Below, one piece after another: positions 6,926 through 59,165 of a stretch of DNA of 64,000 nt. The notes below the pieces were generated by a model. That model worked only from the letters and a program-made list of their open reading frames with translations, made no database searches and was not told where the DNA came from. This DNA comes from Burkholderiales bacterium (GTDB lineage Bacteria > Patescibacteriota > Minisyncoccia > Phycocordibacterales > UBA9973), in assembly GCA_023701005.1 (NCBI GenBank), contig JAMPXW010000002.1:45347-109346 (forward strand), given 5' to 3'. The first letter of the stretch is position 1; the number at the start of each line of letters is the position of its first letter. A program made the position numbers and the translations under genes.

Positions 6926-6958
6926 ATATCTATATTAACATTTTTTACCAAAAATAAG

Positions 6959-6986: not shown

Positions 6987-6999
6987 TGTAAAAACATTT

Positions 7000-10472: not shown

Positions 10473-10480
10473 TAAATTTA

Positions 10481-11533: not shown

Positions 11534-11551
11534 ATAAACATTATAACATAT

Positions 11552-13270
11552 TTAATAAACCTCCCCATTATAACATTTCTCACAATACACAATTTCAAGT
11601 CGATCAGGAGAATAGGAAGTTTCAAATTCATTGGTACAACCTTCTTTCATGCATTTCCTATGCCATAAATCAACTGGATTTCGTGATTCAAACAATTCAA
11701 AATTTCTGGTATTAGGACATTTTCTTGGTAAAGGAATATTCCATCTTTTATAAACTTCAAGTTCATTTTTTGTAATTCTAAATGCTTTTGTACATTTATG
11801 TTCCTGTGCTTTATTTTTATTTTTATCCCATGCTTCGCAAAGAATTATTTCGTTTAATATTGAATCATCTACATTTTTTATTTCTACTAAATCTTTCCAA
11901 TCTTTTGTTGGAGTATAACTTTTATCTTCATTTTCAATCCATGGATAATTATTTTTACATGCTTCTTCTTTTGTAATTGGCAAATATTCTTGAGCAAGTG
12001 TTTCATTGTAAGCAAAAGGCGAATTTTCAATCGGAAATAATTCTCCGTAAAAATATTTTCTTCCACTCTTATCAATGAAAGGCATCTCTTTCATTTGTTG
12101 TTTTATTTTCTGTACTAATTCTTCATACTCTTCTTTTGTATATTGTTTATTTAAAATGCAATATTCTTTTTTACGTAAAGATATAGAACCAAATATATTT
12201 TTTACGTTAAATGAATCAGCGACATATTCTGTATTAAAATTATTTTCACCATTAACACTAAAAAAAATATCTGACGAAAAATCAACATTGTTTGAATCAT
12301 AGGCTAATTGTCCAGCGTTTACTCCAAAAATATCCATAGAATCTCTTTGTTTGAAACCCCTAACTACATATTTTGTATTTTCACCTTCGTAGGCAAGAAA
12401 AGAGTTATGTACATTTTTGCAATTATAAATAAAATTTCCAGAAACATTATAATTCTGTTCTCCGGCCATAAACTTATGAAAGGCTTTTTGTAAAATTATT
12501 TCTTTAAAAGTTTTTACAGCTTTTTTGAATAATTCATATGAACTAAAAGTTTCATTTTTTATTTTCTCATATTCTTCTTTAGATACTTGTTTGTTAAAAA
12601 CATAAAAATTTTTATTTCTAAGATTATAACTAAACATACAATTCTGACAATTGCGACAATCATACAAAAACATAGAACTGAGACAATTGGTACATTCTTG
12701 ACTGAAATGTACTTCATTACAATTTGTGCAATCTGTAGACGAAAAACAAAATTCACATTTTTTTATAAAAATACTATCCCAACAATCTTTACATTCTGAA
12801 AGAGTTTGCCCATAACCACAATTTTCTGAAAACCAACTACCAAATATTAAATAACTATCTTTCATATGGGCAGTATGATTGCAATATTCACTATTTGTAT
12901 TTGCAGATTCATACAAAGCAGGCTTGGGGACTATTTCTTGTAAAGACTTAAATTGTTGAAAGAATGATTTAGAAAAATCATAATCTCTACCATATTCTGT
13001 CGCATCCCACTTATCACTCCACCAACATTCATGACAATACACAGGAAAAACTGTATTTGGTTTATACATTGAAATTATATTATCTTTACATAAATCACAA
13101 TTCCTTTTATATAAAGATCTTTCATTTCTCCATGCAAGTCTACGAGCAAATCTACATTTCCAGCAAAATGTCGGTGGAGGGACTTTTATCTTTTCATAAA
13201 AATTAAAATCTTCTGGCTCTATGGTGAAGTCACATTTACAATTCTGACAATTTTTAGTTTCTTTTTGCAT
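11552..13270 (-). CDS. Cys-rich zinc-ribbon paralog family protein, copy A (572 aa), function unknown
   Basis: N-terminal 'CQNCKCDFTIEPEDFNFYEKIKVPPPTFCWKCR'. Two internal '...NKQ.SKEEYE' modules. C-terminal 'LWHRKCMKEGCTNEFETSYSPDRLEIVYCEKCY'. It is a paralog of the nine ORFs at 32393-58597. Confidence 0.85.
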   Translation of the reverse strand: MQKETKNCQNCKCDFTIEPEDFNFYEKIKVPPPTFCWKCRFARRLAWRNERSLYKRNCDLCKDNIISMYKPNTVFPVYCHECWWSDKWDATEYGRDYDFSKSFFQQFKSLQEIVPKPALYESANTNSEYCNHTAHMKDSYLIFGSWFSENCGYGQTLSECKDCWDSIFIKKCEFCFSSTDCTNCNEVHFSQECTNCLSSMFLYDCRNCQNCMFSYNLRNKNFYVFNKQVSKEEYEKIKNETFSSYELFKKAVKTFKEIILQKAFHKFMAGEQNYNVSGNFIYNCKNVHNSFLAYEGENTKYVVRGFKQRDSMDIFGVNAGQLAYDSNNVDFSSDIFFSVNGENNFNTEYVADSFNVKNIFGSISLRKKEYCILNKQYTKEEYEELVQKIKQQMKEMPFIDKSGRKYFYGELFPIENSPFAYNETLAQEYLPITKEEACKNNYPWIENEDKSYTPTKDWKDLVEIKNVDDSILNEIILCEAWDKNKNKAQEHKCTKAFRITKNELEVYKRWNIPLPRKCPNTRNFELFESRNPVDLWHRKCMKEGCTNEFETSYSPDRLEIVYCEKCYNGEVY

Positions 13271-13302
13271 TTTTTTAAAAGCTACAAGCTAAAACCTATA
13301 AG

Positions 13303-13863: not shown

Positions 13864-13923
13864 TGTTTTTTATCTTAAATTATGGAAATTAAAAATTTTA
13901 AGAGTCGTGTTGGTCCCCTGCCC

Positions 13924-14685: not shown

Positions 14686-14703
14686 CTATATATTATATCA
14701 TAT

Positions 14704-15639: not shown

Positions 15640-15686
15640 ATAAAAATATATACTAATTTAGTAGTAAGAATACATTAACATATATT

Positions 15687-34148: not shown

Positions 34149-35867
34149 CTAATACACCTCCTGCTGATAACATTTCTCACAATATATTATTTCTAACCTT
34201 TCTGGAGAATAAGTTGTCTCAAATTCATTATTACATCCATTCTTCATACACTTGCGATGCCAAAGTTTTAATGGATTTCTTAAATTAATACGTTTATAAT
34301 GTCTACAGTTAGGACAAAGTCTAGGGAGAGGTAGATTCATCCTTTTGTAAAATTTTAACTCTTCTGAAACAATCTTAAAAGCTTCTGTGCATTGATCTTT
34401 GCATTTTCCGCCATGCTCACATGCTATAACTTTATTTAATATATCTTCTGAAATATTTTCTACATCGTTTGGTATATCTTCTGTTTTAATATTAATATCA
34501 TAATTTCTAATCTCAGATTCCTTCCAAATATACCCATGTTCTAAAATTTCTTCCTTACTCAAAGGAAAATATTCTTGAGCAATACTTTCATTATAAGCAA
34601 ATGGTGATGCTTCCTTAGGGAAAAATTCACCATACTTATAAACACATCCTTTATTATCAACAAAAGGAACTTCATTCATGTGTTTAATAATTTTAGGTAC
34701 TAATTTTTCATATTCTTCTTTTGTATACTGCCTATTTAAAATACAATATTCTTTCTTATATAAACCTTCACAACCAAAAATATTTAAACAATCATGGCAT
34801 TCTTCTGTATAACGTACGTTTTGATTCGAAAAATTTCTAACACCAAATGCACTATTTGATCCACCAAAACCATGAGCTATTTCATATAAAAATTCAGCAT
34901 TAAAACCCTGGAAAGATGTATCATAACTATCTTTTGTATTATTTCTACTAAAAAATAAATACTTTGAATTTTCAGCTTGTCTAGAACTAAAAGAATTATG
35001 TGTATTTCTAACTTCATACAAGTCATCTCCATCCGAATTAATAGATTTATAAATGTAAGCATATCTATGTGGAATACTAAGTTTTATTTTCTCGAGTTTA
35101 TTCAAAAACTCTTGATGTTTTTCAAAATTATCTAAACTACTTAATTTTATAAATTTTTCATATTCTTCTTTTGTTTTTTGCTCATTAAAAATACAATAAG
35201 ATTTATTAACAAGGCCTACACAACAAAAACAGTTAATACAATTTCTACAATCTATAAGATAACGACTTTCTACACAATCATTGCAATTACGACTAAAAAA
35301 TAAAAGATTTGATCTTGCACATTCAAAAAGTTCATAACTAAATTGAACTTTTTCAGAAAAAGCAACATCTAAAGAATCTTGTGAATCAAAAATTTGATTA
35401 CCAAAATAAACTCTTTCATTATTTATGCCACCAAACAAAAGATAGCACTCTTTCAAATCGAGCCCATAATTACAATACTCACTAGAAATAAAATTCGTTT
35501 GATAAAGATTAGATCTAGGAACTTTTAACTGCAAAGATTTAAATTGTTCAAAAAATGATTTAGAAAAATCATAATCTGTTCCATAATCTAATGGATTCCA
35601 CTTATCTGAAAGCCAACATTCTTTACAATAAACAATAAAAGGTTTTTCTTTGCTATATACGCTAAGTATATTTTTTTTACACAAAAAACACTCACGTCTA
35701 TAAAAAACACGATTATTCCTGAAAAGTAATCTCCTTTGGAATCTACATTCCGGACAAAATGTAGGTGGAGGGACTTTTATTTTCTCATAAAAATTAAAAT
35801 CTTCAGGCTCTATGGTAAAGTCACATTTACAATTCTGACAGTTTTTAATTTCTTGTTTATATTCCAT
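34149..35867 (-). CDS. Cys-rich zinc-ribbon paralog family protein, copy C (572 aa)
   Basis: Same N- and C-terminal modules as copies A and B. Internal 'CVGLVNKSYCIFNEQKTKEEYEK' and 'LYKKEYCILNRQYTKEEYEKL'. Confidence 0.85.
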   Translation of the reverse strand: MEYKQEIKNCQNCKCDFTIEPEDFNFYEKIKVPPPTFCPECRFQRRLLFRNNRVFYRRECFLCKKNILSVYSKEKPFIVYCKECWLSDKWNPLDYGTDYDFSKSFFEQFKSLQLKVPRSNLYQTNFISSEYCNYGLDLKECYLLFGGINNERVYFGNQIFDSQDSLDVAFSEKVQFSYELFECARSNLLFFSRNCNDCVESRYLIDCRNCINCFCCVGLVNKSYCIFNEQKTKEEYEKFIKLSSLDNFEKHQEFLNKLEKIKLSIPHRYAYIYKSINSDGDDLYEVRNTHNSFSSRQAENSKYLFFSRNNTKDSYDTSFQGFNAEFLYEIAHGFGGSNSAFGVRNFSNQNVRYTEECHDCLNIFGCEGLYKKEYCILNRQYTKEEYEKLVPKIIKHMNEVPFVDNKGCVYKYGEFFPKEASPFAYNESIAQEYFPLSKEEILEHGYIWKESEIRNYDINIKTEDIPNDVENISEDILNKVIACEHGGKCKDQCTEAFKIVSEELKFYKRMNLPLPRLCPNCRHYKRINLRNPLKLWHRKCMKNGCNNEFETTYSPERLEIIYCEKCYQQEVY

Positions 35868-35910: not shown

Positions 35911-36774
35911 TTATATCCCTTCCTTTTTAAGTTCTTCTAGAAGTTCTCGGGCTTTTTTGGAAATCTTAGTAGGTATCTTGATATTTATTTTTATATACAA
36001 ATCCCCCGTCTTGCCATTCTTAATAGCCTCGCCATACCCAGACATTTTTAAAGTTTGTCCATTCTGTATACCAGCTGGAACATTTATAGACACTTCTTCT
36101 TCCTGACGCAAGACTCCTTTGCCTTTACAATTTTCACATTTTTCTTTTGGAACAGAACCAGAACCTAAACATTCTTCGCAGATTCTTGTATTAGATATAT
36201 TTCCTAAAATCGTCCTTTTTATTTCGCGAATTTTTCCTTGACCATTACAATACCTACAAGTATCCATCTTTGTACCTGGCTTAGCGCCTGAATTATGACA
36301 AACAGAACAGCTCGAAGTCTTGGTGATTGCTAATTTCCTTGTCACACCTAAAACAGAATCAGACAAAGTTATTTGTATTTCTGTACTTATATCTCGTCCG
36401 CGTCTTTGTTTTACTCCACCACCTCCTCTGTTTCCTGTAAAAAAATCACTAAAAATATCATTCAAATTGCCAAAATCAAAATCACCTCCCTGGAATCCTC
36501 CAGAAAAACCACCAAAATCAAAACCTTCAAAGCCACCACGCCCTCCATAGCCCTGATTCATATTTTCAAAACCAGCCCCAAATTGATCATATTTTGCTCG
36601 TTTTCCGTCATCAGAAAGAACTTGGTAAGCTTCATTTACTTCTTTAAATTTCTTTTCATCCCCTTCTTTTTTGTCAGGATGATATTTATGAGCCAATTTA
36701 TAAAAGGCTTTTTTTATTTCGTCTTTAGATGCATTCTTAGCAACACCTAAAATGTCATAATAATCTTTATTCAT
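35911..36774 (-). CDS. dnaJ: Chaperone DnaJ, short form (287 aa; J-domain, G/F region, CxxCxGxG zinc fingers; lacks most of CTD-II and the dimerisation tail)
   Basis: '[33 protein letters not shown]'. G/F-rich '[21 protein letters not shown]'. Four CxxC(x)GxG motifs. The protein ends soon after 'GDLYIKINI'. Confidence 0.85.
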
Positions 36775-36790
36775 AAGGTTTATATAGCCA

Positions 36791-38260
36791 TTATATCATA
36801 GGTTCCGCTTCTTGAGAAGTTGTATTTTTTGAGCTTTCTTCTGCTAAAGATCCTTTACCTTTTCCTTCAATGATTGCTTTTTCTTCCGCGCTTCTTATGA
36901 TAGTAGCTTCTTCTTCTGCAATAAGTTTCTGAGCATCATCTTTTGAAATAGAATATTTCCTACGAGAAGCTTCTATTATTTCTTTGCGATAAGAAGGATG
37001 TGTAGGGGGCAAAACTCTTAATGTTTCAGCAGAAAATGGATCATAAGATTCACCATCAATCGTCATTTTAATATAAAATTCAGCTACAGCTAAATTAATC
37101 ATATCTTTAACTCCGAAAAGTGGTTCAAATTCTGGTTTTAATTTTACTGCATCTTCTCCACCAACTCTAAAACAAATTATACTTCCCGTGTTTCCAAGCA
37201 CAGCATGTTGAACTTGGGGTAATAATTGTCCTATATATTGATGAGCAATGGTTAAGTTCAGTGCATATTTTCTAGCCTCTGACAAAATGTTTTCAAAAGT
37301 ATGTGTGACTATGTTTTGAAACTCATCTATGTATAAATAAAAATCTCTACGATCTTTTTCTGGTATTGCTGCTCTTTCCATTCCAGCTTGTTTTATTTTT
37401 GTTAAGAACATTGAACCAAAGAAACTTGAATTTTCTTCTCCAATGCGTCCTTTTGAAAGATTAATAAAAATAATTTTACCTTCATTCATTAATTTACTAA
37501 TATCAATTTTATTTTGCTTTTGTCCAAATATATTTCGTAGAAGTGGATCAGACAAAAACTGTCCCAATTTGTTAACAAGAGGAATGATAGCATCTGTATC
37601 GAACTTTTCAGACCAATCAGCAAATTCGATAGCGAAGAATCTTTTAACCATGTCGTCAGTAATATATTCGACTACTTTCTGTCTATAATTTCTATCAGTC
37701 AACATCGATATCATTCCACGCATTGTGGCATGAGGATAATCCAAAAGTGCCAAACAAGTAAAACGAAAAACGTGTTCAAGGCGTGGTGTCCAGTTTGCCC
37801 CGAATTGTTTTTGCAAAACCTCAATCAAGCCTTGGGTCAATTGAAATTTGAAAAGCGGATCGACGTTGGCAAGAGGGTTGAAAGAAGCTGGAAAATCTAC
37901 ATCTCCAGGGTCAATAACACAAACATCTTCTATTCTCTCTTTTGGAATATAATCCAGCATCGCGTCGATAACATCTCCGTGTGGATCAATAAGACAAAGG
38001 CCATGATTGTATGTGACGTCTTGGCGAATAAACAATTCCATTAATTTAGTTTTACCAACACCAGACTTACCAACAATATACAAATGTCTTCTTCTATCTA
38101 TTCTTTTTAGACCAAAAATAAATTTCTTTTCTTCAAGTGAAGCTACATAATTTGTACGCCCGATGAAAGAAACCTCTTCGGGATCTACTTTTCCAAAAAC
38201 AGGAAGTTCTGGTGGAGGTGGCCCATATTTTATTATTTGCACTCGATTTGGCTTCGGCAT
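36791..38260 (-). CDS. VirD4/TraD/HerA-like P-loop ATPase (coupling-protein-like, no TM anchor), copy 1 (489 aa)
   Basis: Walker A '[14 protein letters not shown]'. 'LIDPHGD'. Walker B '[10 protein letters not shown]'. 'LNLTIAHQY'. Paralogous to the 42501..44579 protein. Confidence 0.8.
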
Positions 38261-38323: not shown

Positions 38324-39040
38324 ATGAAAATACATAGATTTATAGATAAATTTGATTTTTCAAAAAATAAAATAGAAATAACAAACCCTGAAATAATCAA
38401 CCAAATAAAGCTTGTTTTAAGGCTAAAAAAGGGAGAAATTATAATTTTATCTGACGGTAAAGGTAAAAGTATAGAAGTAACCCTAGATACAATAAATCCA
38501 AATAAAATTATATGTATTCCAAACAAAGGAAACTCTACTGTAAAGAATGATACTGAAAATAAAAAAGTAAATTTATATTTAGCTATATTGAAAAAAGAAA
38601 ATTTTGAATTATCTGTACAGAAAGCAGTAGAAGTCGGTGTATCAAAAATAATACCTGTAATAACAGAAAGAACTATTAAAACGGGTTTAAATGTAATTCG
38701 TTTAGAAAAAATAATCAAAGAAGCTAGTGAACAATGCGGAAGAGATATATTACCTACACTATCTAATATCTCTAAATTTGAAGACGCCCTAAAAGATGGA
38801 GAAAATTCTGAAGAGAAAATTATTTTTCATATAGACAAAAATATTAATAACAATTTCTATACTCCAAATAAAAAAGCAAAAACTTCAAGCATTTTTATAG
38901 GACCAGAAGGTGGTTTTACGGAGAATGAAATAAAACTAGCTAAAAATTTAAATTATAAAATCAGTTCTCTTGGCTCTCTAACCTTGCGTGGAGAAACAGC
39001 CGCCATAGTAGCTACTTATCGTGCAGTCGAAGGAATTTAA
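38324..39040 (+). CDS. rsmE: 16S rRNA (uracil1498-N3)-methyltransferase RsmE
   Basis: C-terminal SPOUT block 'FIGPEGGFTENEIKLAKNLNYKISSLGSLTLRGETAAIVA'. Confidence 0.8.
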   Translation: MKIHRFIDKFDFSKNKIEITNPEIINQIKLVLRLKKGEIIILSDGKGKSIEVTLDTINPNKIICIPNKGNSTVKNDTENKKVNLYLAILKKENFELSVQKAVEVGVSKIIPVITERTIKTGLNVIRLEKIIKEASEQCGRDILPTLSNISKFEDALKDGENSEEKIIFHIDKNINNNFYTPNKKAKTSSIFIGPEGGFTENEIKLAKNLNYKISSLGSLTLRGETAAIVATYRAVEGI

Positions 39041-40740
39041 TAGACCTCTTTGTTATAACAATTTTCACAATATACTATTTCAGGTCTGTCAGGGGCGTAA
39101 GAAGTTTCAAATTCATTATTACAACCTTCTTTCATGCATTTACGATGCCAGAGGTTACGTGGATTTCTCAACATAAATCTATCAGTACGACGACAAGCAA
39201 AACATTTTTCAGGTATGGGTAAATTTAATATTTTATATAAAGATAATTCTAAAGAAGTAATTTTAAAAGCTGTCGTGCATAGAGGATATTCATCTTTATA
39301 ATCATTTAATTTTTGAGATGAACATTGTATTGCTTCTTCTAAAATATTTTCTTTAATTTCTGAAAAAGTTTTGGGTATTTTTTCTGCAGGGATAAAAATC
39401 TTGTAATCTCTTTCTGGTCTATCGTACCATTTATAGCCCTTTCTTTTAGCTTCTTCTTTATTTAAAGGAAAATAATCTTGAGCCATAGATTCATTGTATG
39501 CAAATGGTGAAAAATTAGCTGGAAAATATTCACCCCACTCTTCTATGTCTATCATATGTTTGATTATTTTTTCTTTTAAAGAAAAATAATCTGATTTAGA
39601 ATATTGTTTATTTAAAATACAATAACTTTTTTTCTTTAAGCCAAAACATCCAAAACAATTTTCTACACCAAAACACATATCACAATAATACGAATCAGTA
39701 ATGGTACCAAAACAACTTCTAATAATCATAGATCTATGTGGTGCTTCAACACCTTGAGCTTCATAAGCTAGCTGTCCAGTAATTATTTCTGTACAATCGC
39801 GGCAATCTTCAGAATCCCATGCATCTTGCATATAAGCAGTATCTTTATTTTTATGACAATTAAAACCAAGTTTCATTCTTTGAGTATTTTCTATATAATC
39901 ACCATTAGACTGTTGAACTTGTACACCATGATAAAATTTTATAGGCATGCTAAGTCTTAATTTAAAAGCTTCTTCTTGTGATTTTTTTATAAAATCTCTA
40001 TCCCATTCAAAATTTTTAACTTTTTTTTCATATTCATCTTTTCCTATATTTTTATTAAAATAAAAATACTGTTTATTTCGAAGACCAACACAACCGAAAC
40101 AATCAGTGCATCCCTTGCAATCATTAGAAAAATAGACATTAACACAGTCAGAACAATCAGAAGACCAAAGACAATGAGAACACTTTTTAATATTAATACA
40201 CTCATAACAGTATTCGCTCTTTTCTGCTAAATAACAATCACTTAAAAAATAACAGCCCCACTGACACCAGCTTCCATACATACATTTTTCATTTGAACCA
40301 CTTGTAACAAGCATATAACAATCTTTATTGTTTTGAGATTGATTTGTATATTCGCTATTTACACTACTAGCATTAACCATAGCCAAATGTGGGACTATAT
40401 CGCGCAACTCTTCGTATTGTTCAAAAAAAGATTTATTAAAATCAAAATCTCTTCCATATTTTACAGCATCAAATTTATCTGATTTCCAATATTCTTGTTT
40501 ATAAACAGGGAAAGAAACATTTTCTCTGTAAATTGAAATTATACTTTCTCCAGTAGCATCACATTTTCTTTTATAAAAGTTATATTCATTTCTATCTAAA
40601 AGCCTACGAATATATCTGCATTCCGGGCAAAATGTCGGTGGAGGGACTTTTATTTTCTCATAAAAAGAGAAGTCATCAGGCTCTATAATAAAGTCACATT
40701 TGCAATTTTTACATATTTTGTTTTCACTTTTGTATTCCAT
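39037..40740 (-). CDS. Cys-rich zinc-ribbon paralog family protein, copy D (567 aa)
   Basis: 'CKNCKCDFIIEPDDFSFYEKIKVPPPTFCPECR' ... 'CVGLRNKQYFYFNKNIGKDEYEK' ... 'LWHRKCMKEGCNNEFETSYAPDRPEIVYCENCYNKEVY'. Confidence 0.85.
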   Translation of the reverse strand: MEYKSENKICKNCKCDFIIEPDDFSFYEKIKVPPPTFCPECRYIRRLLDRNEYNFYKRKCDATGESIISIYRENVSFPVYKQEYWKSDKFDAVKYGRDFDFNKSFFEQYEELRDIVPHLAMVNASSVNSEYTNQSQNNKDCYMLVTSGSNEKCMYGSWCQWGCYFLSDCYLAEKSEYCYECINIKKCSHCLWSSDCSDCVNVYFSNDCKGCTDCFGCVGLRNKQYFYFNKNIGKDEYEKKVKNFEWDRDFIKKSQEEAFKLRLSMPIKFYHGVQVQQSNGDYIENTQRMKLGFNCHKNKDTAYMQDAWDSEDCRDCTEIITGQLAYEAQGVEAPHRSMIIRSCFGTITDSYYCDMCFGVENCFGCFGLKKKSYCILNKQYSKSDYFSLKEKIIKHMIDIEEWGEYFPANFSPFAYNESMAQDYFPLNKEEAKRKGYKWYDRPERDYKIFIPAEKIPKTFSEIKENILEEAIQCSSQKLNDYKDEYPLCTTAFKITSLELSLYKILNLPIPEKCFACRRTDRFMLRNPRNLWHRKCMKEGCNNEFETSYAPDRPEIVYCENCYNKEVY

Positions 40741-40742
40741 GT

Positions 40743-42497
40743 TTAATACACTTCTTTATTATAACAATTTTCACAATATACTATTTCAGGTCTGTCGGGA
40801 GCGTAAGGCGTTTTGAAAGTAGCCAAACATTTACCTTGATGTCCATGACCCTCATTTTCACACATACATTCTCTACGCCAAAGTTTCATTGGATTACGTT
40901 TCTTCAACCTATTCTCATGACGACAATTAAAACAAAATCTCGGTAAAGGAACTCCTAATTTTCTATATAAATTAAATTCATCTAAGATTATTTTATAAGC
41001 TCCCCTACAATATCCACTTTCTGTATCTTTATTTTTACAACCAATAATTTCATTCAAAATTGATTCATCAACATCTCTTAAATCATCAGGCAAATCTACT
41101 GATTCAATAGTCGTCACATATTCACTCACCTTCTTGTCTCTCCACCTATAACCATTTTTTATAGCTTCTTCTTTATTTAAAGGAAAATAATCTTGAGCTT
41201 GAGTTTCGTTGTAACAAAAAGTAGACATTTCTGCAGGGAAAAATTCACCATATTTATAAATTAGACCCCTCTTGTCTATATATGGCATATCGTTCATGTG
41301 TTGTTTTATTTTTGGTATTAATTCTTCATATTCTTCTTTTGTGTATTGTTTATTTAAAATACAATATTTCTTCGTTCGAAGACCTATACATCCAAATATA
41401 TTGTCACAACCATGACAATTGAAAGAATATTCTACATTATTAGAACTATAAACAACACTAGTAAATAAATTACGAAAATTCCCTATTCCTGTATCAAAAG
41501 ACTCATACAATAATTCACCATCTCCAACTCCGGGGCCAGAATCATATGCATCTTTTAAGAAATAAGCTGCCCAATGAATAAATTTACAATCTTCTATTCT
41601 ATTTCCAACTGCATCAAAAGAATATCTACAATTTTTTACACCTTCTAAATTATCCCCCGTTGAATTCATTACTTTATTTTGGTTTGAAAAACGATGCAAA
41701 GATTTTGAATGAATTTCTTTAAATTTTTCTTTCAATTCTTCAACAACTTTATAACTTTTTAAATTTATTTCTGACAATCGGCTTAAATATTCATCCCTAG
41801 AAAGTTGCTCATTCCACATACAATACGATTTATTACGTAAATTTGTGCAACCAAAACAATTTATACAACCATGACAATCATATAGAAAATAAGAATCTAC
41901 ACAACTTTTACAATTGGTAGAGTACAAAGTCTGATAACAATCTGAACAAAATAAGTTTTCATAACAGAGTTCACATCTGTGTGCTACATAAACATCTGAG
42001 CATTCTTTTGTCATTGTTATTCTATTAGAATATAAAGTCCTATCTATTTGCCATGAACCAGAACACAAATAACTATCTTTGCTGCCCTCCGCCACATTAC
42101 AATAATCACTATTAGTGGCTTTTATATTAGAAAGACTTTGTAATGGAATTTTATCTCTCAATTCTTTCCATTGTGTAAAAAATGTTTTAGAAAAATCATA
42201 TTCTTTTCCAAAAGAAACTGCATTCCATTCATCTCCCCACCAATACTTACTATCACAAACGACAACCTCTTCAGAAGGATGAATAAAAGAAACAAGCATC
42301 TCGTTGTGACCTGGAGCATCACATTTTCTTTTAAATAGAGACATTTCATTTCTCCAGCACAGCCTTCTAATAGTCCTACATTCTGGGCAAAATGTCGGAG
42401 GAGGAACCTTTATTTTTTCATAAAATTTAAAATCTTCTGGCTTTAATACAAAGTCTATTTTACAATTCTGGCAAATAATTTTGACTTCGTTTTCCAT
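40743..42497 (-). CDS. Cys-rich zinc-ribbon paralog family protein, copy E (584 aa)
   Basis: 'CQNCKIDFVLKPEDFKFYEKIKVPPPTFCPECR' ... 'CTNLRNKSYCMWNEQLSRDEY' ... 'CIGLRTKKYCILNKQYTKEEYEEL' ... 'PEIVYCENCYNKEVY'. Confidence 0.85.
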   Translation of the reverse strand: MENEVKIICQNCKIDFVLKPEDFKFYEKIKVPPPTFCPECRTIRRLCWRNEMSLFKRKCDAPGHNEMLVSFIHPSEEVVVCDSKYWWGDEWNAVSFGKEYDFSKTFFTQWKELRDKIPLQSLSNIKATNSDYCNVAEGSKDSYLCSGSWQIDRTLYSNRITMTKECSDVYVAHRCELCYENLFCSDCYQTLYSTNCKSCVDSYFLYDCHGCINCFGCTNLRNKSYCMWNEQLSRDEYLSRLSEINLKSYKVVEELKEKFKEIHSKSLHRFSNQNKVMNSTGDNLEGVKNCRYSFDAVGNRIEDCKFIHWAAYFLKDAYDSGPGVGDGELLYESFDTGIGNFRNLFTSVVYSSNNVEYSFNCHGCDNIFGCIGLRTKKYCILNKQYTKEEYEELIPKIKQHMNDMPYIDKRGLIYKYGEFFPAEMSTFCYNETQAQDYFPLNKEEAIKNGYRWRDKKVSEYVTTIESVDLPDDLRDVDESILNEIIGCKNKDTESGYCRGAYKIILDEFNLYRKLGVPLPRFCFNCRHENRLKKRNPMKLWRRECMCENEGHGHQGKCLATFKTPYAPDRPEIVYCENCYNKEVY

Positions 42498-42500
42498 TTT

Positions 42501-44579
42501 TTATTCCAAAATCTTTTTTAAAACATCTTCAGAAACTTCTTTTGTCTCAGTTTTAGGAATATTTTTTACTAAATCATCAAGATTAGAAGGCTCAGGAACT
42601 TTTTCTTCAGAAATTTTGACTTCTTCTTTAATTACTTTATCAGATATAAAATTCTTTAATTTATTCATTTCATCTACACTGGCTGATCTGTCTTTTGTGG
42701 ATGTTGGATGAGTATTTGATTGAGTATTTTTTAATTCACTTAAAGATATCTGTTTTACTTGTACTGGTTTTTCTTTTACTATCTCCTTTTTTATAGCCTC
42801 TGGTTCTTTTTTAGCTAAAGTCTTGTCTAATATTTCTCTTAAAGCTAAATTCTCTTTTGGTTTTTCTTTTGTAAATACCTTCTTAAAAGCAGAAAATATT
42901 TTTGGCTTTACCGGAATAAATGGTTTCTGAATATTGGGCACATTAACATTTTTGATTTCTGCTTCATTGTGTATATTTTTATCTATCCTTTCTGGATACC
43001 TTTCAGCACTATTATTCATTCCATCTTTTTGTTTAAATTCTATACCCAGATCAGCCAATGGTTTATAAAATTTAGATTCATCTTGTTTTATTTGATTTAA
43101 TGAACCTTTTATAGGTTTAACTTCTCCTGATTTTATCTTTGCTATACAATCTCTACAATAGACAGCTCTACCTGCTTCTGGTTTAAAAGGAACAAAAGTA
43201 TCTTTTTTACAAACAGAACATTGTGCGGGAAATTTCTCTACTCCAAGGCCATTGGTATCATCACCCAAAGACATTCCACTCCAATTGTTTATTTCTCTTT
43301 CTACGACTTCTCTCGATCTACAATAAAGTTCACGTGATGATTTGATAACTTCCTCTTCGACTTCTTTATTACCAGATTTTGCCATAGGAGGTAAGGTTTT
43401 TGCCGAAAAAGGACGAGATGTTATACCGTCAATCATTAATTTCAAATAAATTTTAAAGTTAGGCAAACTGACAATATCTTGAGGTGTAAATTCTGGTTCA
43501 AATTCTTTTTCTAAAAATTCTGCATCGTCAGCACCTACTCTAAATATAATCATCGTTCCAACGTTACCAAAAATAGAATCTCTCACACTTGAATTTTTGT
43601 CTGAAACTAATTGTGCAGTATACTGATGCGCCACAGTAAGATTCAATCTGTATTTTCTAGCTTCAGATAATATAGAAGCGAAAGAATCTGTAACGAAATT
43701 TTGGAATTCGTCGACATATAAATAAAAATCTTTTCTTTCATCTTCGGGTATACGGACACGTTCCATGGCAGCAAGTTGAATTTTAGTGATGAGCATACCT
43801 CCCAACAAAGAAGAGTTATCTTCACCGATACGTCCCTTAGAAACATTCACAAGGAATATCTTCCCTTCGTTCATTATGTCAAAGACATTTATTGTACTTT
43901 TTGATTGCCCAACGACATTTCTTATGATTGAAGTAGACAAGAATTGTCCAACTTTATTTTGTATAGGAGCAATAGCTTCATTTCTAAACTTATCTTGCCA
44001 AGCTTCATATTCATGAACCCAAAAAGATTTGATGACTGGATCTTTTAAATTAGAAATTATTTTCTGACGATAGTCTTTATCTACCAACATTCTAGGAATA
44101 CCGAGCATTGTGGTGCCTGGAGTATCAAGTAAAGCCAAAATGGCATTATTCAAAATATATTCCATCCTGGCAGACCAAGCATTGGCCCATATCTTCGTAA
44201 AGATCCCCATAAGTCCAGACGCCACTAAGTGTTTATATTTTGGATCAACTAATTCAAGAACATTAAATCCAATATGATAATCAGGGTCACTAGGATTAAA
44301 ATAGACAACATCTTTCATTCGATGAGGAGGAATAGCACCTAAAACACTTTCGACTAATTCTCCATGCGGGTCGACAACACAAACACCAGAACCATTTTCA
44401 ATATTCTGAACTATCATATTAAACATCAATACAGACTTACCTGTACCAGATTTTCCAAGTATATAAACATGCTGACGTCTATCTTTGCGTTTTATGCCAA
44501 AAAGCTGATTTTTATCTCTATAAGTAGTGAGCCCAATGTATGTAAGATCCTTATTTTTTGGTATCTCTTTGATATCCAT
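42501..44579 (-). CDS. VirD4/TraD/HerA-like P-loop ATPase, copy 2 (692 aa), with a C-terminal zinc ribbon and a K/E-rich low-complexity tail
   Basis: Walker A 'YILGKSGTGKSVLM'. 'VVDPHGE'. Walker B 'FYLYVDEFQN'. 'LNLTVAHQY'. C-terminal 'CSVCKKDTFVPFKPEAGRAVYCRDC', then a K/E/P-rich tail. Confidence 0.8.
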   Translation of the reverse strand: MDIKEIPKNKDLTYIGLTTYRDKNQLFGIKRKDRRQHVYILGKSGTGKSVLMFNMIVQNIENGSGVCVVDPHGELVESVLGAIPPHRMKDVVYFNPSDPDYHIGFNVLELVDPKYKHLVASGLMGIFTKIWANAWSARMEYILNNAILALLDTPGTTMLGIPRMLVDKDYRQKIISNLKDPVIKSFWVHEYEAWQDKFRNEAIAPIQNKVGQFLSTSIIRNVVGQSKSTINVFDIMNEGKIFLVNVSKGRIGEDNSSLLGGMLITKIQLAAMERVRIPEDERKDFYLYVDEFQNFVTDSFASILSEARKYRLNLTVAHQYTAQLVSDKNSSVRDSIFGNVGTMIIFRVGADDAEFLEKEFEPEFTPQDIVSLPNFKIYLKLMIDGITSRPFSAKTLPPMAKSGNKEVEEEVIKSSRELYCRSREVVEREINNWSGMSLGDDTNGLGVEKFPAQCSVCKKDTFVPFKPEAGRAVYCRDCIAKIKSGEVKPIKGSLNQIKQDESKFYKPLADLGIEFKQKDGMNNSAERYPERIDKNIHNEAEIKNVNVPNIQKPFIPVKPKIFSAFKKVFTKEKPKENLALREILDKTLAKKEPEAIKKEIVKEKPVQVKQISLSELKNTQSNTHPTSTKDRSASVDEMNKLKNFISDKVIKEEVKISEEKVPEPSNLDDLVKNIPKTETKEVSEDVLKKILE

Positions 44580-44612: not shown

Positions 44613-46301
44613 CTAATATATTTCTTTCTGATAACAAGCCTCACAATAAACTATCTCTGGTCTTTCGGGAGCATAAGAAGTCTCAAATTCATTATTACAA
44701 CCCTCTTTCATACATTTACGATGCCAAAGTCTTGGTGGATTACGTTTTTCTACTCTCTCAAAATATCTACAATTTGGACAAAGATGTGGGATAGGAATAT
44801 TTAATTTTTTATACAATCCCAATTCATTTTGCAAGACCCTAAAAGCAGTAGTGCAATTATGATTACATTTTCCATTGTGTCCACAGCTTATTATTTCTTG
44901 TATTATATTATCTTTTATATCATTTATATCCTCTGGTAATTGATCTATCGGTAAAGTAACTTTATAATCTCTTAAATCTGCATCACGCCAACAATATCCT
45001 TTATCTTCAACTTCTTTCTTTGTCAGTGGAAAAAGTTCCTGTGCCTCAGATTCATTGTAAGCAAAAGGGCTAATCCAATATGGGAAAAATTCTCCAAATT
45101 CCTTTGTCTTTTTCATATGTTCAATTATTTTTTCTTTCAAATTCTCATATTCTTCTTTGTTGTATTTCTTATTTAAAATTGAATAAGAACCTTTCTTCAT
45201 TCCGACACAACCAAAACAATTTTCAGCAGAAGGAGAAAACAAAGAATAGTAAATATCTCGACATTGAAAACAAAAAACTGAAAAATAATTTCTCTGAGAA
45301 TTATCTGCTACAACTACTTCATAACACTGCTCTGCTTTTCCACTCATTAAACTATCATAAGTGTCTTTTGTCGTATCGCTACCAAAAATAAATCTCTGAT
45401 TTTCTCCGTTAATTACCTGGAAAGCATATTTTACATTTTTACAATTTATCAAAAAATCACCAGTAGAAATTACGGATTTTTTGATATAAGAATATTTATG
45501 AGGGAAATTAGAACAAAAATCTTTAAATTCTTTTTTATATTTTTCTACAGAATAAAAATTACTTAAATTCATCTTTTTTAATTTTATTTCATATTCTTCT
45601 TTTGTATATTGTTTATTTTTTATACAATAGCTTTTATTTCTTAAGCCAATACACATAATACAATTCAAACATCCACTCAAATCATAACCCAAAAAACAAT
45701 CCTGGCATTCTGAACAATAGGTACAATACTTAGAACGTGCTATCTTATAGCACTGCAGACATTCATAAGCGAGCTCCGCTTCTCTCATGTGCATACAGTC
45801 AAGCATATCTTTGTTGTGTTCAATATGAAAAGAATATAAAACATTTTCCGCGTGCCAACCGGAAACACACATATAACAATTTTTACTAAAAAACCAATCA
45901 TATGTATATTCACAATTTACACTTGCTACTTCATTATCATTTGTAATCGAGAGAGCAGGAACTATTAATGACAACTCTTTTAGTTGCTCAAAAAAGTTTT
46001 TAGAAAAATCAAATTCTATCCCATATTGACATGGATCCCAATTATCACTCCACCAACATTTTTGACAATAAACTGGGAATGGTGCATTTGTTGGATAAAT
46101 AGAAATTATATTTTTCTTACACAAGTCACATTCTCTTTTATATAAGGTATGGCCATTTCGAAACATCATTCGTCTCTGCATTCTACATTCCGGGCAAAAA
46201 GTTGGTGGTGGAACAACTATTTTCTCATAAAAACCAAAATCATCCGGCTCTATTGTGAAGTCTTTTTTACAGTTTTGACAATTTTTAATTTCAGATTGCA
46301 T
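44613..46301 (-). CDS. Cys-rich zinc-ribbon paralog family protein, copy F (562 aa)
   Basis: 'CQNCKKDFTIEPDDFGFYEKIVVPPPTFCPECR' ... 'CIGLRNKSYCIKNKQYTKEEYE' ... 'LWHRKCMKEGCNNEFETSYAPERPEIVYCEACYQKEIY'. Confidence 0.85.
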   Translation of the reverse strand: MQSEIKNCQNCKKDFTIEPDDFGFYEKIVVPPPTFCPECRMQRRMMFRNGHTLYKRECDLCKKNIISIYPTNAPFPVYCQKCWWSDNWDPCQYGIEFDFSKNFFEQLKELSLIVPALSITNDNEVASVNCEYTYDWFFSKNCYMCVSGWHAENVLYSFHIEHNKDMLDCMHMREAELAYECLQCYKIARSKYCTYCSECQDCFLGYDLSGCLNCIMCIGLRNKSYCIKNKQYTKEEYEIKLKKMNLSNFYSVEKYKKEFKDFCSNFPHKYSYIKKSVISTGDFLINCKNVKYAFQVINGENQRFIFGSDTTKDTYDSLMSGKAEQCYEVVVADNSQRNYFSVFCFQCRDIYYSLFSPSAENCFGCVGMKKGSYSILNKKYNKEEYENLKEKIIEHMKKTKEFGEFFPYWISPFAYNESEAQELFPLTKKEVEDKGYCWRDADLRDYKVTLPIDQLPEDINDIKDNIIQEIISCGHNGKCNHNCTTAFRVLQNELGLYKKLNIPIPHLCPNCRYFERVEKRNPPRLWHRKCMKEGCNNEFETSYAPERPEIVYCEACYQKEIY

Positions 46302-47092: not shown

Positions 47093-48985
47093 TTATTCTT
47101 TTGGCACTTCTCCTTCTTTATTATCCGCATCTCGAACTTCTGCATTTTGTTCTTCTGGTGCAGAAGCTGGAGGAGTTTCGGCTCCGGCTTTATTTAAAGC
47201 TTCACCTATTTTAGACATTTCATTTGAAAGTTCTTCTGTAGCTTTTTTAATAGCTTCAGAATCATTTCCATCTTTTACTCCACGTAATGCTGTTATTTTT
47301 GTATTAACGCCTTCTTTCACATCAGCTGGAATCTTGTCTTCATTATCCTTCAAAGCTTTCTCGGCTGTATAAATAATCATTTCTGCTGTATTTTTTATAT
47401 CAACCATCTCTCTTTTCTTTTTATCTTCTTCAGCATGAACTTCTGCATCTTGTTGCATCTTTTTGATATCTTCTTCCTTGAGTCCAGAACTTGCTTCGAT
47501 TTTAATTGATTGTGCTTTTCCTGAAGCTTTATCCATTGCTTTCACATTCAATATTCCATTAACATCAATATCAAAAGTCACTTCAACTTGAGGCATACCC
47601 CTAGGTGCTGGTGGAATTCCATCCAAAATAAATCTACCCAAAGATTTATTGTCAGAAGCCATTGGACGTTCTCCTTGCACTATATGGATTTCTACAGAAG
47701 TTTGATTATCAGCAGCAGTAGAAAATACTTGAGATTTTGAAGCTGGAATAGTAGTATTTCTTTCTATCAATTTTGTAGCTACTCCTCCTAATGTTTCAAT
47801 ACCAAGAGAAAGTGGAATGACATCCAAAAGCAAAACATCACGAACATCTCCAGCCAATACTCCTGCTTGCACAGCAGCACCCAAGGCTACAACTTCATCA
47901 GGATTAATAGACATATTTGGAGTTTTTCCGAAAAGATTCTTTACAGCCTCCACTATTGCTGGCATTCTAGTCTGACCTCCTACCATTATTATTTCATTTA
48001 TTTCATTCATTTTAAATGGAGAAGCTTCTAGGGCTCTTTTTGTAATAGCAATAGAACGATCTATGTATTCTTTTGCCAAAGATTCTAAAGTGGCACGAGA
48101 CATTTTCAAAAGTAAATGCTTAGGGCCATCTGAATCAGAAGTAATAAATGGAATATTTATCTCTGCTTCCATTGTTGTAGAAAGTTCATGTTTTGCTTTT
48201 TCTGCAGCTTCTTTTAATCTTTGGTGCGCCAATGGATCTTTCCTCACATCTACTCCAGATTCTTTTTTATATTCTTCGGCGATCCAAGTGATTATTTTTC
48301 TATCTATATCTCCACCACCCATATGACTATCTCCATCTGTAGATTTAACTTCTATGACATCATCACCTATCTCTAAAACAGAAACATCAAAAGTTCCTCC
48401 CCCAAAGTCATACACAACTATCTTTTCATTTTTCTTTTTATTAAATCCATAAGCGAGAGCTGCTGCGGTAGGTTCATTTATAATTCTTTTTACATCAAGT
48501 CCAGCTATTTGTCCTGCATCTTTTGTGGCTTTTCTTTGAGCATCATTAAAATAAGCTGGAACAGTGATCACTGCTTCTGTTATTTTTTCTCCGAGCTTTG
48601 CTTCTACGTCTGTTTTTATTTTTTGTAATATCATCGCAGATATTTCTTCTGGACGATAAAACTTTTCAGACATTTTTACTTTTACTCCACCATCTTCTCC
48701 CGTCTCTATTTTAAATGGAGCTGTAGTTTTATCTTTCTGAACTTCTGGATCATCAAATCTATGACCCATATATCTTTTTATTTCAGAAATTGTATTTTCT
48801 GGATTTGTCACAGCTTGTCTTTTAGCCAACAAACCTACAATGCGATCACCGTTTTTTGCTGTTGCTATGACAGAAGGAGTCGTACGATTTCCTTCTACGT
48901 TTTCAATAATCTTTGGTGCCCCTCCCTCTACGAAAGCGACTGCAGAATTTGTTGTACCCAAATCTATACCTATTATTTTTGACAT
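47093..48985 (-). CDS. dnaK: Chaperone DnaK (Hsp70)
   Basis: '[13 protein letters not shown]', '[10 protein letters not shown]' and 'VGGQTRMP' with a full Hsp70 architecture. Confidence 0.95.
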
Positions 48986-56914: not shown

Positions 56915-58597
56915 TCAATTTATGTTTTGTTTATAACATTCTTCACAAGCAATTTTCTTGTAATTCCACTCTGGTAAATAATAAGCCTTTCTATCTTTTT
57001 TACAATAACAACAAACATAATCATATGATTGAAGTACCGTTAGAGTCTTCAGGCTTTCTTTGATTCGTACATCAAAATGATATCTAGGAAGTGGGATTCC
57101 ATTTTCTCTGTAAAAAGAAAGTTCATTTCTGGCAATATTAAAACGCCAACCAGTCAAAGGACATATTAAAGCTTGGGTAATAATAGTATCGGGAACATCT
57201 TTTATATCATCAGGTAATTTGTCTGTGCTCATTCCTTCGATATTGCTTTCATTTATATCTTCCCAATAACCACCAAATTTTAAAATATCTTCTTTTTTAG
57301 TATCTGGAAAATATGTAAAACTAGTAGAAAAATTAAAAGGCCCAGCGCTCATAGAATATGGTAAAAATTTACCATACTCTCCTCTTTTTTTCATATCAGA
57401 AATTATTTTATTTTTTAGTTCTTCGTATTCAACTTTTCCATATTTTTTATTTAAAATACAATATTTTTTCTTTTTTAAACCCACACAACCAAAACAATAT
57501 TCACATTCAATACATAGATCTAAATATTCAGAGTATCTAGAAGACGACCAAGAAGAATATTTCAAAGCATAACCATTAACACAGCAACTACAGTTACCTA
57601 ATAATTCAGTATACCAACAACCATCTGCATCAATATCTGATTTATGTCTCATTCCTCTAATACAATTGAAACAATCTTCTGATTCACTGATCGTATTGCA
57701 ATTATGACAATTTTTACAATCTAAAAGATAATCACCGTCAGAATCATATATTTTAAGGTTAAAATTAAGCCTATGAACAACTTCATCTTCCATAATTTCC
57801 TCAAAACGTTTTTTAAAAGATTGAATGGCTTGATATGAACCTAAATTATAAGATTTTATTTTTTCTAGATATTCTTCCCTGCTATATTCTACATTTTCGA
57901 TACAATAAGATTTGCCTCTTAAATTCCAGCACATAAAACAATTTTGACAATTTCGACAGTCATAAAGAAAATAAGAATCGATACAATCACGAGAATGTTT
58001 TGAATAAAATAACTTATAAGAATGATGGCACTCTGCAGAGTCGTAACATTTTTCTGAATTATAACAAATAGCTACATCAATAGAATTTTTAACTTTCAAA
58101 TTCCTGTATGAATACATTAAATCTTCACATTCTTCCATTGATCGTGCTAAATAACAATTTTTAGAATTCCAAACATCATCACAATAATCGCAATTAGTGT
58201 TCTTTATACCATTCTGGTGTGGACGAGGAACTTTTTTTTGAAGTTTTTGTAATTGTTCAAAAAATGGTTTATTTTCATCATAATCTTGACCATAATTCAT
58301 AGCATCCCATTTATCGCTATACCATTCTGTAGATGTATAAATAGGGTAACGATTTTTCTCTGGTAATACTGTAATCAAATTCTCTCCAGATAAATCTGAC
58401 TTACCTTTGCGAAATTTTCCAAACATCCAAAAAGATAGATGTTGTTTTATACGACAAAAATTACAAATAGTTGGTAATTCTATATCAACTTTTTTATACA
58501 AAGAAAGTTCTCCATCCGTAATGGTAAATTCATTTTTGCAGTGCTCACATTCTCTATTTCTCTGTAATCGATTCTGATTCATTATATTCAAAAACAT
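56915..58597 (-). CDS. Cys-rich zinc-ribbon paralog family protein, copy J (560 aa), the most divergent member
   Basis: 'CEHCKNEFTITDGELSLYKKVDIELPTICNFCR' ... 'CWNLRGKSYCIENVEYSREEYLEK' ... 'CVGLKKKKYCILNKKYGKVEYEEL' ... C-terminal 'ACEECYKQNIN'. Its start overlaps the end of grpE. Confidence 0.8.
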   Translation of the reverse strand: MFLNIMNQNRLQRNRECEHCKNEFTITDGELSLYKKVDIELPTICNFCRIKQHLSFWMFGKFRKGKSDLSGENLITVLPEKNRYPIYTSTEWYSDKWDAMNYGQDYDENKPFFEQLQKLQKKVPRPHQNGIKNTNCDYCDDVWNSKNCYLARSMEECEDLMYSYRNLKVKNSIDVAICYNSEKCYDSAECHHSYKLFYSKHSRDCIDSYFLYDCRNCQNCFMCWNLRGKSYCIENVEYSREEYLEKIKSYNLGSYQAIQSFKKRFEEIMEDEVVHRLNFNLKIYDSDGDYLLDCKNCHNCNTISESEDCFNCIRGMRHKSDIDADGCWYTELLGNCSCCVNGYALKYSSWSSSRYSEYLDLCIECEYCFGCVGLKKKKYCILNKKYGKVEYEELKNKIISDMKKRGEYGKFLPYSMSAGPFNFSTSFTYFPDTKKEDILKFGGYWEDINESNIEGMSTDKLPDDIKDVPDTIITQALICPLTGWRFNIARNELSFYRENGIPLPRYHFDVRIKESLKTLTVLQSYDYVCCYCKKDRKAYYLPEWNYKKIACEECYKQNIN

Positions 58598-59165
58598 TAA
58601 CCCTGGCAGCTCGTATTACTCTATCGCCTAATTTATATCCCTTTTGAATAACCTCAGATATTTTATGATTATTTTCTTTCACATCCGTCTTTGTCATATC
58701 GATAGACTGATGAATATTTGGGTCAAAATCTTCTCCTTCTTCCCCGACCTCTTTTACATCATATTCTTCAAATATTGTATTGAGTTGAGCATAAATATAT
58801 TCTACTCCTTTTCTCCAATTTTCATCCACCTTATTCCAAGATTCTTTATTTGCAAAGGCCATATTAAAACTATCTAATACCGTCAAAAATCTAGTGAGAA
58901 TGCGTTCACGTACTGATTCTGAGAAATTAGATCTTCTATCGTCTTCTTGTTTACGATAATTAACGAAGTCAGCTCTTTCTTTCTGCCAACCATTTAAATA
59001 TTCTTCTTTTTCTTTTTTGCAAATTTTTAAATCAGCTCTTAATTTCTTAATAGTTTTCTTTAAATCTTCTTCTCCATCTTCGTTAAATTCAAATTCAAGA
59101 ACTTCCGACTCAGTAGAGTCGTCCCGAGTAGAGTCGATAGATATTTCTTTTTCTTCATCTTTCAT
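58554..59165 (-). CDS. grpE: Nucleotide exchange factor GrpE
   Basis: 'ERADFVNYRKQ', 'ILTRFLTVLDSFNMA', 'DFDPNIHQSI' and 'QKGYKLGDRVIRAARVNVFEY' are the GrpE blocks. Confidence 0.8.
   Translation of the reverse strand: MKDEEKEISIDSTRDDSTESEVLEFEFNEDGEEDLKKTIKKLRADLKICKKEKEEYLNGWQKERADFVNYRKQEDDRRSNFSESVRERILTRFLTVLDSFNMAFANKESWNKVDENWRKGVEYIYAQLNTIFEEYDVKEVGEEGEDFDPNIHQSIDMTKTDVKENNHKISEVIQKGYKLGDRVIRAARVNVFEYNESESITEK

Follow-up and report, generated by a model that had tools for sequence, protein, structure and literature searches.

Background

In the F-plasmid coupling protein TraD, a C-terminal extension binds TraM, and in FtsK the gamma domain is likewise a C-terminal recognition domain. 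For the CxxC-x17-CxxC domain type, zinc binding has been measured in small proteins of M. mazei (PMC12704099). Here we examined a 64-kb stretch of contig JAMPXW010000002.1 (positions 45,347 to 109,346 of the forward strand; the window hereafter), and in it ATPase-2, a protein related to TraD and TrwB that carries such a motif beyond its nucleotide-binding region, together with ten copies of a cysteine-rich paralogous protein encoded in the same window. An earlier note on this DNA had likened the ATPase-2 motif to the C-termini of the paralogs, and had offered two meanings for the likeness: recognition or homotypic interaction between a putative motor and its putative substrates, or domain shuffling within the locus. 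Our comparisons make it very probable that the two are homologous, the ATPase-2 finger being a canonical member, and the paralog fingers diverged members, of one zinc-finger family.

Results and discussion

A CxxC-x17-CxxC finger in ATPase-2

The interval 42501-43250, to which the earlier note had drawn attention, corresponds to the last 249 codons of the ATPase-2 open reading frame (ORF). Within it, the cysteine motif CSVCKKDTFVPFKPEAGRAVYCRDC spans nt 43146-43220 (aa 454-478) and places C454, C457, C475 and C478 in the spacing CSVC-17-CRDC, after the NTPase domain as had been reported. Its score against PF23477 (zf_Tbcl_2) is 40.5 bits in the full protein and 47.9 bits when it is scanned alone (cut-off, 27), and against TIGR04272 ('CxxC-x17-CxxC domain') 42.9 bits (cut-off, 36). 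By these profile scores the motif is a canonical PF23477 / TIGR04272 finger and a predicted zinc site. There is nothing new in this assignment, because public records hold it already: NCBI and JGI call many ATPase-2 orthologues 'CxxC-x17-CxxC domain-containing protein'.

The finger is kept in 120 of 120 database orthologues of ATPase-2 (the best 120 listed), where its sequence is near-invariant, and in all of the 81 genome loci with such orthologues. In the AlphaFold2 (AF2) model it forms a strand-knuckle-strand unit with a helix starting after Cys3, a predicted layout that is compatible with a treble clef; the predicted local distance difference test score (pLDDT) is 60-75. When the PDB was searched by sequence with the finger, only chance-level matches to RING and zinc-finger proteins were returned (E ≥ 0.36).

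Similarity to the paralog fingers beyond the cysteine skeleton

The C-terminal cysteine pattern that the earlier note had quoted for the paralogs was recovered in the window copies. The first knuckle is C-x4-C in seven of the ten (CMKEGC, CMKENC, CMKNGC), is widened by 10 or 22 inserted residues in two, and in the last one is C-x-C with an 18-residue loop; the final CxxC is preceded by exactly 17 residues in nine of the ten and in 258 distinct family C-termini. An exact CxxC-x17-CxxC is found at the C-terminus of 39 distinct related family members. This C-terminal finger has the signature NEFETSYAPDRPEIVYCExCY and an acidic surface. A second finger of the same spacing, overlooked by the note, lies directly after the N-terminal zf_Tbcl finger (CDLCKKNIISIYPTNAPFPVYCQKC, aa 58-82 of paralog 44613-46301), and its exact CxxC-x17-CxxC is present in 118 of 124 aligned family members and in six of the ten window copies.

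Scans of the full-length paralogs with Pfam and NCBIfam gave no match, and the isolated termini alone matched. For the isolated C-termini of the window paralogs, PF23477 was the sole or best Pfam match at an E-value of about 0.002 (18.4 bits, E = 0.0018 for paralog 40743-42497; 17.9 bits, E = 0.0026 for paralog 39037-40740). Among 48 family C-termini, 37 matched PF23477 at E ≤ 0.01 (best 6.4e-8) and 29 matched TIGR04272 (best 2.4e-7), and these two were the top families of their libraries both by member count and by E-value. C-termini of related genomes with an intact first CxxC reached the PF23477 cut-off (27.0, 27.6 and 27.6 bits).

Profile-profile alignments were made with hhalign between 158 distinct ATPase-2 fingers and the paralog fingers, with column shuffles that left the cysteine columns fixed as the null. 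Against the paralog C-termini with an intact CxxC, the ATPase-2 finger aligned with a probability of 95.5% (E = 1.4e-8, score 33.7), and against all paralog C-termini, taken from the second cysteine, with a probability of 90%; no shuffle out of 100 reached the real score in either C-terminal comparison (z 5.2-5.5). With the N-proximal paralog finger the match was a little better than with the C-terminal finger (probability 96.5%, E = 7.5e-10, z 7.2). The two paralog x17 fingers were closer to each other (probability 98.3%, z 11.8) than either was to ATPase-2. As a specificity control, the ATPase finger was compared with the zf_Tbcl-type CxxC...CxxC fingers of the same paralogs, and here the probability stayed at the baseline of 2-6%.

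Several results weigh against kinship of the two kinds of finger. The C-termini of the window paralogs score 16-18 bits and the N-proximal fingers 12-20 bits, under the PF23477 cut-off of 27; the first knuckle of the window C-termini is mostly C-x4-C or longer, not CxxC; and a first, smaller hhalign test, of window-type C-termini against 98 near-identical ATPase fingers, was marginal (probability 66%, with the real score equalled or exceeded by three of 200 shuffles) and was later replaced by the larger alignments. If the match were one of chance or convergence, of the sort to be expected between any two CxxC...CxxC zinc ribbons of similar spacing, such scores would be natural, as would the shortness of the fingers and the weak matches that LIM and other zinc-finger models also produce. 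However, in each of the five larger comparisons none of the 100 cysteine-preserving shuffles attained the real score (z 5.2-11.8), other CxxC...CxxC fingers of the very same proteins remained at baseline, PF23477 and TIGR04272 headed their libraries, some family members passed the Pfam cut-off, and the 17-residue loop recurs in nearly all window paralogs and across the distinct family C-termini. We therefore regard chance or convergence as very improbable. Because of the profile tests and the specificity control, the similarity that the earlier note had asked HHalign to look for is found to exceed generic CxxC...CxxC spacing.

In the AF2 models, one strand stops shortly before Cys1, the next begins three residues past Cys2, and a helix follows right after Cys3; this strand/knuckle/strand/helix order is predicted at identical cysteine offsets in all three fingers, with the paralog model confident and the ATPase-2 finger in the pLDDT range given above. 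As modeled, the shared layout is the treble-clef pattern. In short, both x17 fingers of the paralogs are very probably diverged members of the family to which the ATPase-2 finger belongs.

Probably an old module rather than an exchange within the locus

The genes for ATPase-2 and for paralogs are adjacent, lie on the same strand and encode the same type of finger, as might be expected if recent domain shuffling or gene conversion had moved the finger from one to the other, which was the second meaning proposed by the earlier note. To place the fingers within their family, an exhaustive search with the ATPase-2 finger was made; it retrieved 902 cluster representatives at E ≤ 0.001, and 190 fingers from multi-copy CxxC-x17-CxxC proteins were taken from it as a generic set. 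These generic fingers aligned with the ATPase-2 finger at an hhalign score of 68.9 (probability 99.2%, E = 6e-20), whereas the ATPase-2 finger aligned with the paralog fingers at 25.5-37.3. Between the generic set and the paralog fingers the scores were 22.9-31.5 (probability 89-96% for the C-terminal finger). By these profile comparisons the ATPase-2 finger is an ordinary, near-consensus family member, and the paralog fingers are diverged ones at about equal distance from everything else; the ATPase-2 finger is no closer kin to them than the generic family members are.

The aligned sequences agree with this picture, because the ATPase-2 finger and the window paralog fingers share only four or five identities outside the cysteines. 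The fusion of finger and ATPase is invariant in all of the orthologues examined, and a more distant ATPase of 886 aa has the finger at the same position. Because the finger is generic-like and the fusion is fixed in all orthologues and in the 886-aa ATPase, recent shuffling within the locus is argued against, and we consider it extremely improbable. The window paralogs are 33-47% identical to one another and up to 78% identical to orthologues in other genomes, which indicates that they are old and individually conserved; this pattern and the fixed fusion together suggest that both the ATPase-2 fusion and the paralogs are old. The evidence points to a small, mobile zinc-finger module inherited by common descent, old and shared across the family, and not to an exchange within the locus.

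Architecture of the ATPases and paralogs

The positions of all features are listed in Table 1. Residues 1-440 of ATPase-2 match P-loop NTPases of the TraD/TrwB/HerA kind in Pfam (PF10412, 41.2 bits, cut-off 20.5; PF12696, 29.4 bits, cut-off 22; PF01935, 38.6 bits, cut-off 23.2), and Walker A starts at about aa 42. More than 8000 homologues were found, of which the best 120 listed are 69-83% identical. As the earlier note had observed, ATPase-1 is without the extension: beyond the shared region it continues for about 40 residues and ends finger-less, and the ATPase-1 orthologues that were found at the 81 related loci are all without CxxC-x17-CxxC. No transmembrane segment was found by a hydropathy scan of both ATPases and the paralogs. 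The maximal 19-residue Kyte-Doolittle mean was 1.06 for ATPase-2 and 0.96 for ATPase-1, with no segment above 1.6, while an ABC transporter used as control had 48 such segments.

The note had called the remainder of ATPase-2 a K/E/P-rich disordered tail. It is rich in K (18.5%) and E (11.8%) over aa 482-692, and K, E and P together make up 37% of it, compared with 18% of the NTPase domain; the enrichment in P (6.6%) is mild. Islands that are invariant in 20 orthologues occur at about aa 504-515, 566-568, 630-645 and 681-691 (F504-F515, KFYKPLADLGIEF; K566-V568; D630-I645; and the C-terminal E681-L691), so that the tail is not purely of low complexity, and they suggest docking motifs within a disordered region. 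In the AF2 model, the blocks past aa ~500 have mean pLDDT values of 25-59, mostly below 50, and the tail is probably disordered. This model, built from a shallow alignment of 20 sequences, is poor as a whole (pLDDT 46), and hence it lends weak support both to the disorder of the tail and to the fold of the finger, which is a further point to be set against our interpretation.

Table 1. Features of the window, with positions counted from its first nucleotide
Feature	Position	Strand	Basis or details
ATPase-2, 692 aa, soluble TraD/TrwB-like P-loop ATPase with C-terminal zinc finger and tail	42501..44579	minus	ORF, Pfam
NTPase region common to ATPase-2 and ATPase-1 (ATPase-2 aa 10-430)	43290..44552	minus	BLASTP, 45% identity over 428 aa, E 8e-135
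CxxC-x17-CxxC finger of ATPase-2 (predicted treble clef), aa 449-481	43137..43235	minus	PF23477, TIGR04272
K/E-rich tail of ATPase-2, aa 482-692 (211 residues), with conserved short islands	42504..43136	minus	Composition
ATPase-1, 489 aa, paralogous soluble TraD/TrwB-like ATPase without finger or long tail	36791..38260	minus	ORF, Pfam, BLASTP
Paralog, 562 aa	44613..46301	minus	zf_Tbcl finger 46185-46280; intact N-proximal x17 finger 46056-46130; C-terminal x17 finger 44616-44714 (C-x4-C)
Paralog, 584 aa	40743..42497	minus	C-terminal x17 finger 40746-40862, His-rich insert in first knuckle; N-proximal cysteines lost
Paralog, 567 aa	39037..40740	minus	C-terminal x17 finger 39040-39138 (C-x4-C); N-proximal finger degenerate
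Paralog, 572 aa	34149..35867	minus	N-proximal x17 finger 35616-35690; C-terminal finger 34152-34250
Paralog, 571 aa	32393..34108	minus	N-proximal x17 finger 33857-33931; C-terminal finger 32396-32494
Paralog, 572 aa, outside the dnaK region, adjoining ScpB/ScpA	11552..13270	minus	N-proximal x17 finger 13025-13099; C-terminal finger 11555-11653
Paralog, 580 aa	51533..53275	minus	C-terminal finger 51536-51634; N-proximal finger degenerate
Paralog, 565 aa	53277..54974	minus	N-proximal x17 finger 54729-54803; C-terminal finger 53280-53378
Paralog, 593 aa	55088..56869	minus	N-proximal x17 finger 56618-56692; C-terminal finger 55091-55243, 22-residue His-containing insert in first knuckle
Paralog, 560 aa, most divergent	56915..58597	minus	C-terminal finger 56918-57010, 18-residue loop; N-proximal finger degenerate
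DnaJ, after ATPase-1	35911..36774	minus	PF00226 89.4 bits, PF00684 53.3 bits; synteny
DnaK	47093..48985	minus	Sequence; ATPase-2 follows dnaK in nearly all related loci
GrpE, head of conserved gene string	58554..59165	minus	PF01025 130 bits; synteny

More than 6800 homologues of the paralogs were found, and among the 120 hits listed none carried a precomputed Pfam domain or an informative name. The N-terminal finger, CxxC-x24-CxxC with the signature FYEKIxVPPPTxCPxCR, has zf_Tbcl (PF13451) as its sole Pfam match, at E = 0.0016 and 18.8 bits, below the cut-off of 24. A duplicate of this finger precedes the C-terminal x17 finger (hhalign of T1 versus T2, probability 98.9%), and in paralog 44613-46301 the N-terminal module (aa 3-83) aligns with the C-terminal one (aa 468-557) at a Smith-Waterman score of 133.5, compared with 33.5 +/- 6.9 for shuffles. 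This duplication gives the architecture [zf_Tbcl][x17 finger] - core - [zf_Tbcl][x17 finger]. The AF2 model of the same paralog has a pLDDT of 90.9, and the paralogs are cytoplasmic, cysteine-rich beta-solenoid proteins with a two-finger module at each end.

In the first C-terminal knuckle at 40746-40862 and 55091-55243, and in that of many other family members, there are His-rich inserts (CMCENEGHGHQGKC is one), 10-12 or 22 residues long, which might provide an additional metal site. Four of the ten window paralogs (39037-40740, 40743-42497, 51533-53275 and 56915-58597) are without the cysteine ligands of the N-proximal finger, at about aa 55-85, with the flanking sequence kept (for example CDATGESIISIYRENVSFPVYKQEY); these fingers are probably degenerate, metal-free versions. 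The most divergent copy, 56915-58597, is 33% identical to paralog 44613-46301. Its ORF call overlaps the 3' end of grpE (58554-59165) by 44 nt, and translation may in fact begin at an internal ATG six codons further on (MNQNR...).

Gene order around dnaK

In essentially all of the 81 Paceibacterota/Nomurabacteria loci, and also in the window, the order grpE - dnaK - ATPase-2 - ATPase-1 - dnaJ is kept. The string starts as GrpE - [0-4 paralogs] - PaaX-like (opposite strand) - DnaK - ATPase-2, and ends as ATPase-2 - [0-4 paralogs, sometimes RsmE or an ABC transporter] - ATPase-1 - DnaJ - [paralogs]; the paralogs are inserted in variable number at four positions. No description of two TraD-like ATPases in a grpE-dnaK-dnaJ string was found in the literature searched. 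The small PaaX-like protein (PF20803; 49118-49630, plus strand) is encoded divergently, directly upstream of dnaK, in the window as well as at most related loci, and is a candidate regulator of the gene string. Immediately upstream of grpE lies a gene for a Fic-domain protein (59230-60414, minus strand) with Fic_N, Fic and SoFic-like C-terminal domains.

The association of paralogs with the ATPase varies among genomes. In 63 of the 81 loci, at least one paralog lies within the sequence covered around ATPase-2. At the other 18 no paralog was seen, and the seven of these that have full 10-kb flanks all keep the finger. A paralog of Sungbacteria is located between rpoC and the ATP synthase genes, and no ATPase of this kind is encoded within 10 kb of it. 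In a distant Patescibacteria genome (L083), a TrwB-like ATPase of 495 aa (5559-7046) without a finger lies 3 kb upstream of a paralog; two ORFs of ~545 aa after that paralog (10001-16046) may be further paralogs. The association is frequent in the clade without being obligatory or linked to the presence of the finger.

The rest of the window has a housekeeping content: aminoacyl-tRNA synthetases, DnaB, ScpA/B, cell-wall genes, RpoA and GrpE/DnaK/DnaJ. Neither type IV secretion system (T4SS) nor relaxase genes were found in the 64 kb, and a conjugative element was rejected for these reasons. A defence system was considered as well. In PADLOC the two ATPases match mad8 (57 and 40 bits) and, weakly, HerA, as expected for any P-loop of the FtsK/HerA type, and no match to the paralogs was obtained; because the context is one of a conserved core genome, which argues against a defence island, and the matches are generic P-loop matches alone, this candidate was rejected too.

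The close homologues of ATPase-2 and of the paralogs all belong to Patescibacteria (Paceibacterota, Nomurabacteria, Minisyncoccia). The source record (locus tag NDI62_02015) is labelled 'Burkholderiales bacterium', probably through a taxonomic misassignment; the GC content of the window is ~30%, and its close homologues are all from Patescibacteria.

Charge and possible function

The net charge was computed over the 27 columns shared by the fingers. It is +3.9 +/- 0.8 for the ATPase-2 finger and -3.4 +/- 1.5 for the C-terminal finger of the paralogs, with +1.4 for the generic fingers and +0.7 for the N-proximal finger of the paralogs. This difference in surface charge argues against a symmetric, homotypic contact, one of the possibilities in the earlier note, and allows a heterotypic one; it also argues against the binding of one common ligand by the same surface of both fingers.

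The basic finger and tail of ATPase-2 may act as a tethered arm with which the ring ATPase recruits a ligand. Since both finger and tail are basic, one would expect the ligand to be nucleic acid or an acidic partner. In the paralogs the C-terminal finger is acidic, and its different surface probably goes with a different ligand. The TraM-binding extension of TraD and the gamma domain of FtsK are the parallels for such an arm, and by this analogy we put the functional reading forward tentatively, as a possibility that falls short of being probable. It draws on analogy and composition, which counts against it. The favoured reading as a whole, shared family descent of the fingers together with an adaptor-arm function, we regard as likely.

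The nearness of paralogs to ATPase-2 at most of the loci, which may reflect a functional link, also counts against the reading just given. In an alternative, the basic ATPase-2 finger would dock onto the paralogs, either on their acidic C-terminal finger or on the entire two-finger module, and would mark them as clients of the motor. This alternative recasts the motor-substrate idea of the earlier note as a concrete pairing of a basic with an acidic finger. The paralogs flank ATPase-2 on the same strand in those 63 loci and in the window, the net charges are opposite, ATPase-2 alone of the two ATPases has a finger, and paralogs are again found near a TrwB-like ATPase in a distant lineage. However, the finger persists at the seven loci without a nearby paralog, the Sungbacteria paralog has no such ATPase close to it, the ATPase next to the paralogs in the distant genome is finger-less, and the 81 loci are of close relatives, so that their synteny may be partly inherited and not selected. 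Moreover, membership of a common fold family is no evidence of mutual binding. We consider this motor-substrate recognition quite unlikely. The interpretation in the earlier note is supported in part, in that the likeness goes beyond cysteine spacing, but neither meaning that it proposed, recognition or homotypic interaction on the one hand and shuffling on the other, gains support from our results.

A broader proposal can be made for the gene string. The products of grpE, dnaK, the ATPase-2 and ATPase-1 genes and dnaJ would, with the paralogs, form a Patescibacteria-specific cytoplasmic machine, in which the ATPases and Hsp70 would act on the paralogs and the arm of ATPase-2 would grip their acidic C-terminal x17 finger. 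We think this decidedly unlikely.

What is modestly new is the picture of a very large Patescibacteria family: a beta-solenoid with a pair of zinc fingers at each end, the two pairs being duplicates and one finger of each pair of the CxxC-x17-CxxC type. The description provides an entry point to two uncharacterised gene sets that are highly conserved in these small genomes, the paralogs and the soluble TraD-like ATPases in the dnaK operon. The more intriguing lead is their combination: two soluble TraD-like ATPases and an expanding set of zinc-finger beta-solenoid paralogs inside a dnaK operon.

Comparison with known systems

The ATPase-2 finger shares with the CxxC-x17-CxxC domain (TIGR04272; PF23477, 'probable treble clef zinc finger') its spacing and the VPFKP...RPVYCxxC signature, and exceeds both cut-offs. 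The closest non-ATPase proteins that were found carry tandem arrays of two to five copies, whereas ATPase-2 has a single copy on a TrwB-like ATPase. Some DEAD-box helicases may likewise carry a TIGR04272 finger at their C-terminus. The paralog copies differ from the domain by their acidic surface, by a widened or His-rich first knuckle and by scores under the cut-offs. The N-terminal finger of the paralogs resembles zf_Tbcl (PF13451), below its cut-off, and is unlike the finger type of ATPase-2.

The type IV coupling proteins TraD, TrwB and VirD4 share with ATPase-2 a nucleotide-binding and an all-alpha region (PF10412 and PF12696, both above cut-off), and a general design in which a ring ATPase bears a C-terminal extension, potentially for the choice of a partner. 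However, ATPase-2 has no N-terminal membrane anchor, is encoded in a chromosomal grpE-dnaK-dnaJ string without T4SS or relaxase genes in the window, and remains far below the equivalog and subfamily models of NCBIfam (at best 49.4 bits against a cut-off of 250 for the CD1115 family, and 48.1 against 366 for SXT TraD). Also, the extension of TraD is an acidic peptide, and that of ATPase-2 is a zinc finger with a basic tail. Judged by these matches, ATPase-2 is like the type IV coupling proteins, yet not a member of them.

The FtsK/HerA-type translocases belong to the same ATPase superfamily as ATPase-2 (PF01935; HerA matches in PADLOC) and follow the same logic, a small C-terminal module tethered to the motor by a linker. 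PF01580 (FtsK_SpoIIIE) matches ATPase-2 only at E = 0.21, and the module of ATPase-2 is a zinc finger, not a winged helix. As for the paralogs, they are only 3-13% identical to cysteine-rich beta-solenoids such as the Tenebrio antifreeze protein, curli CsgA and the left-handed beta-helix enzymes; the resemblance is one of fold alone, and the paralogs differ from these proteins by the zinc-finger modules at their termini and in having no signal peptide.

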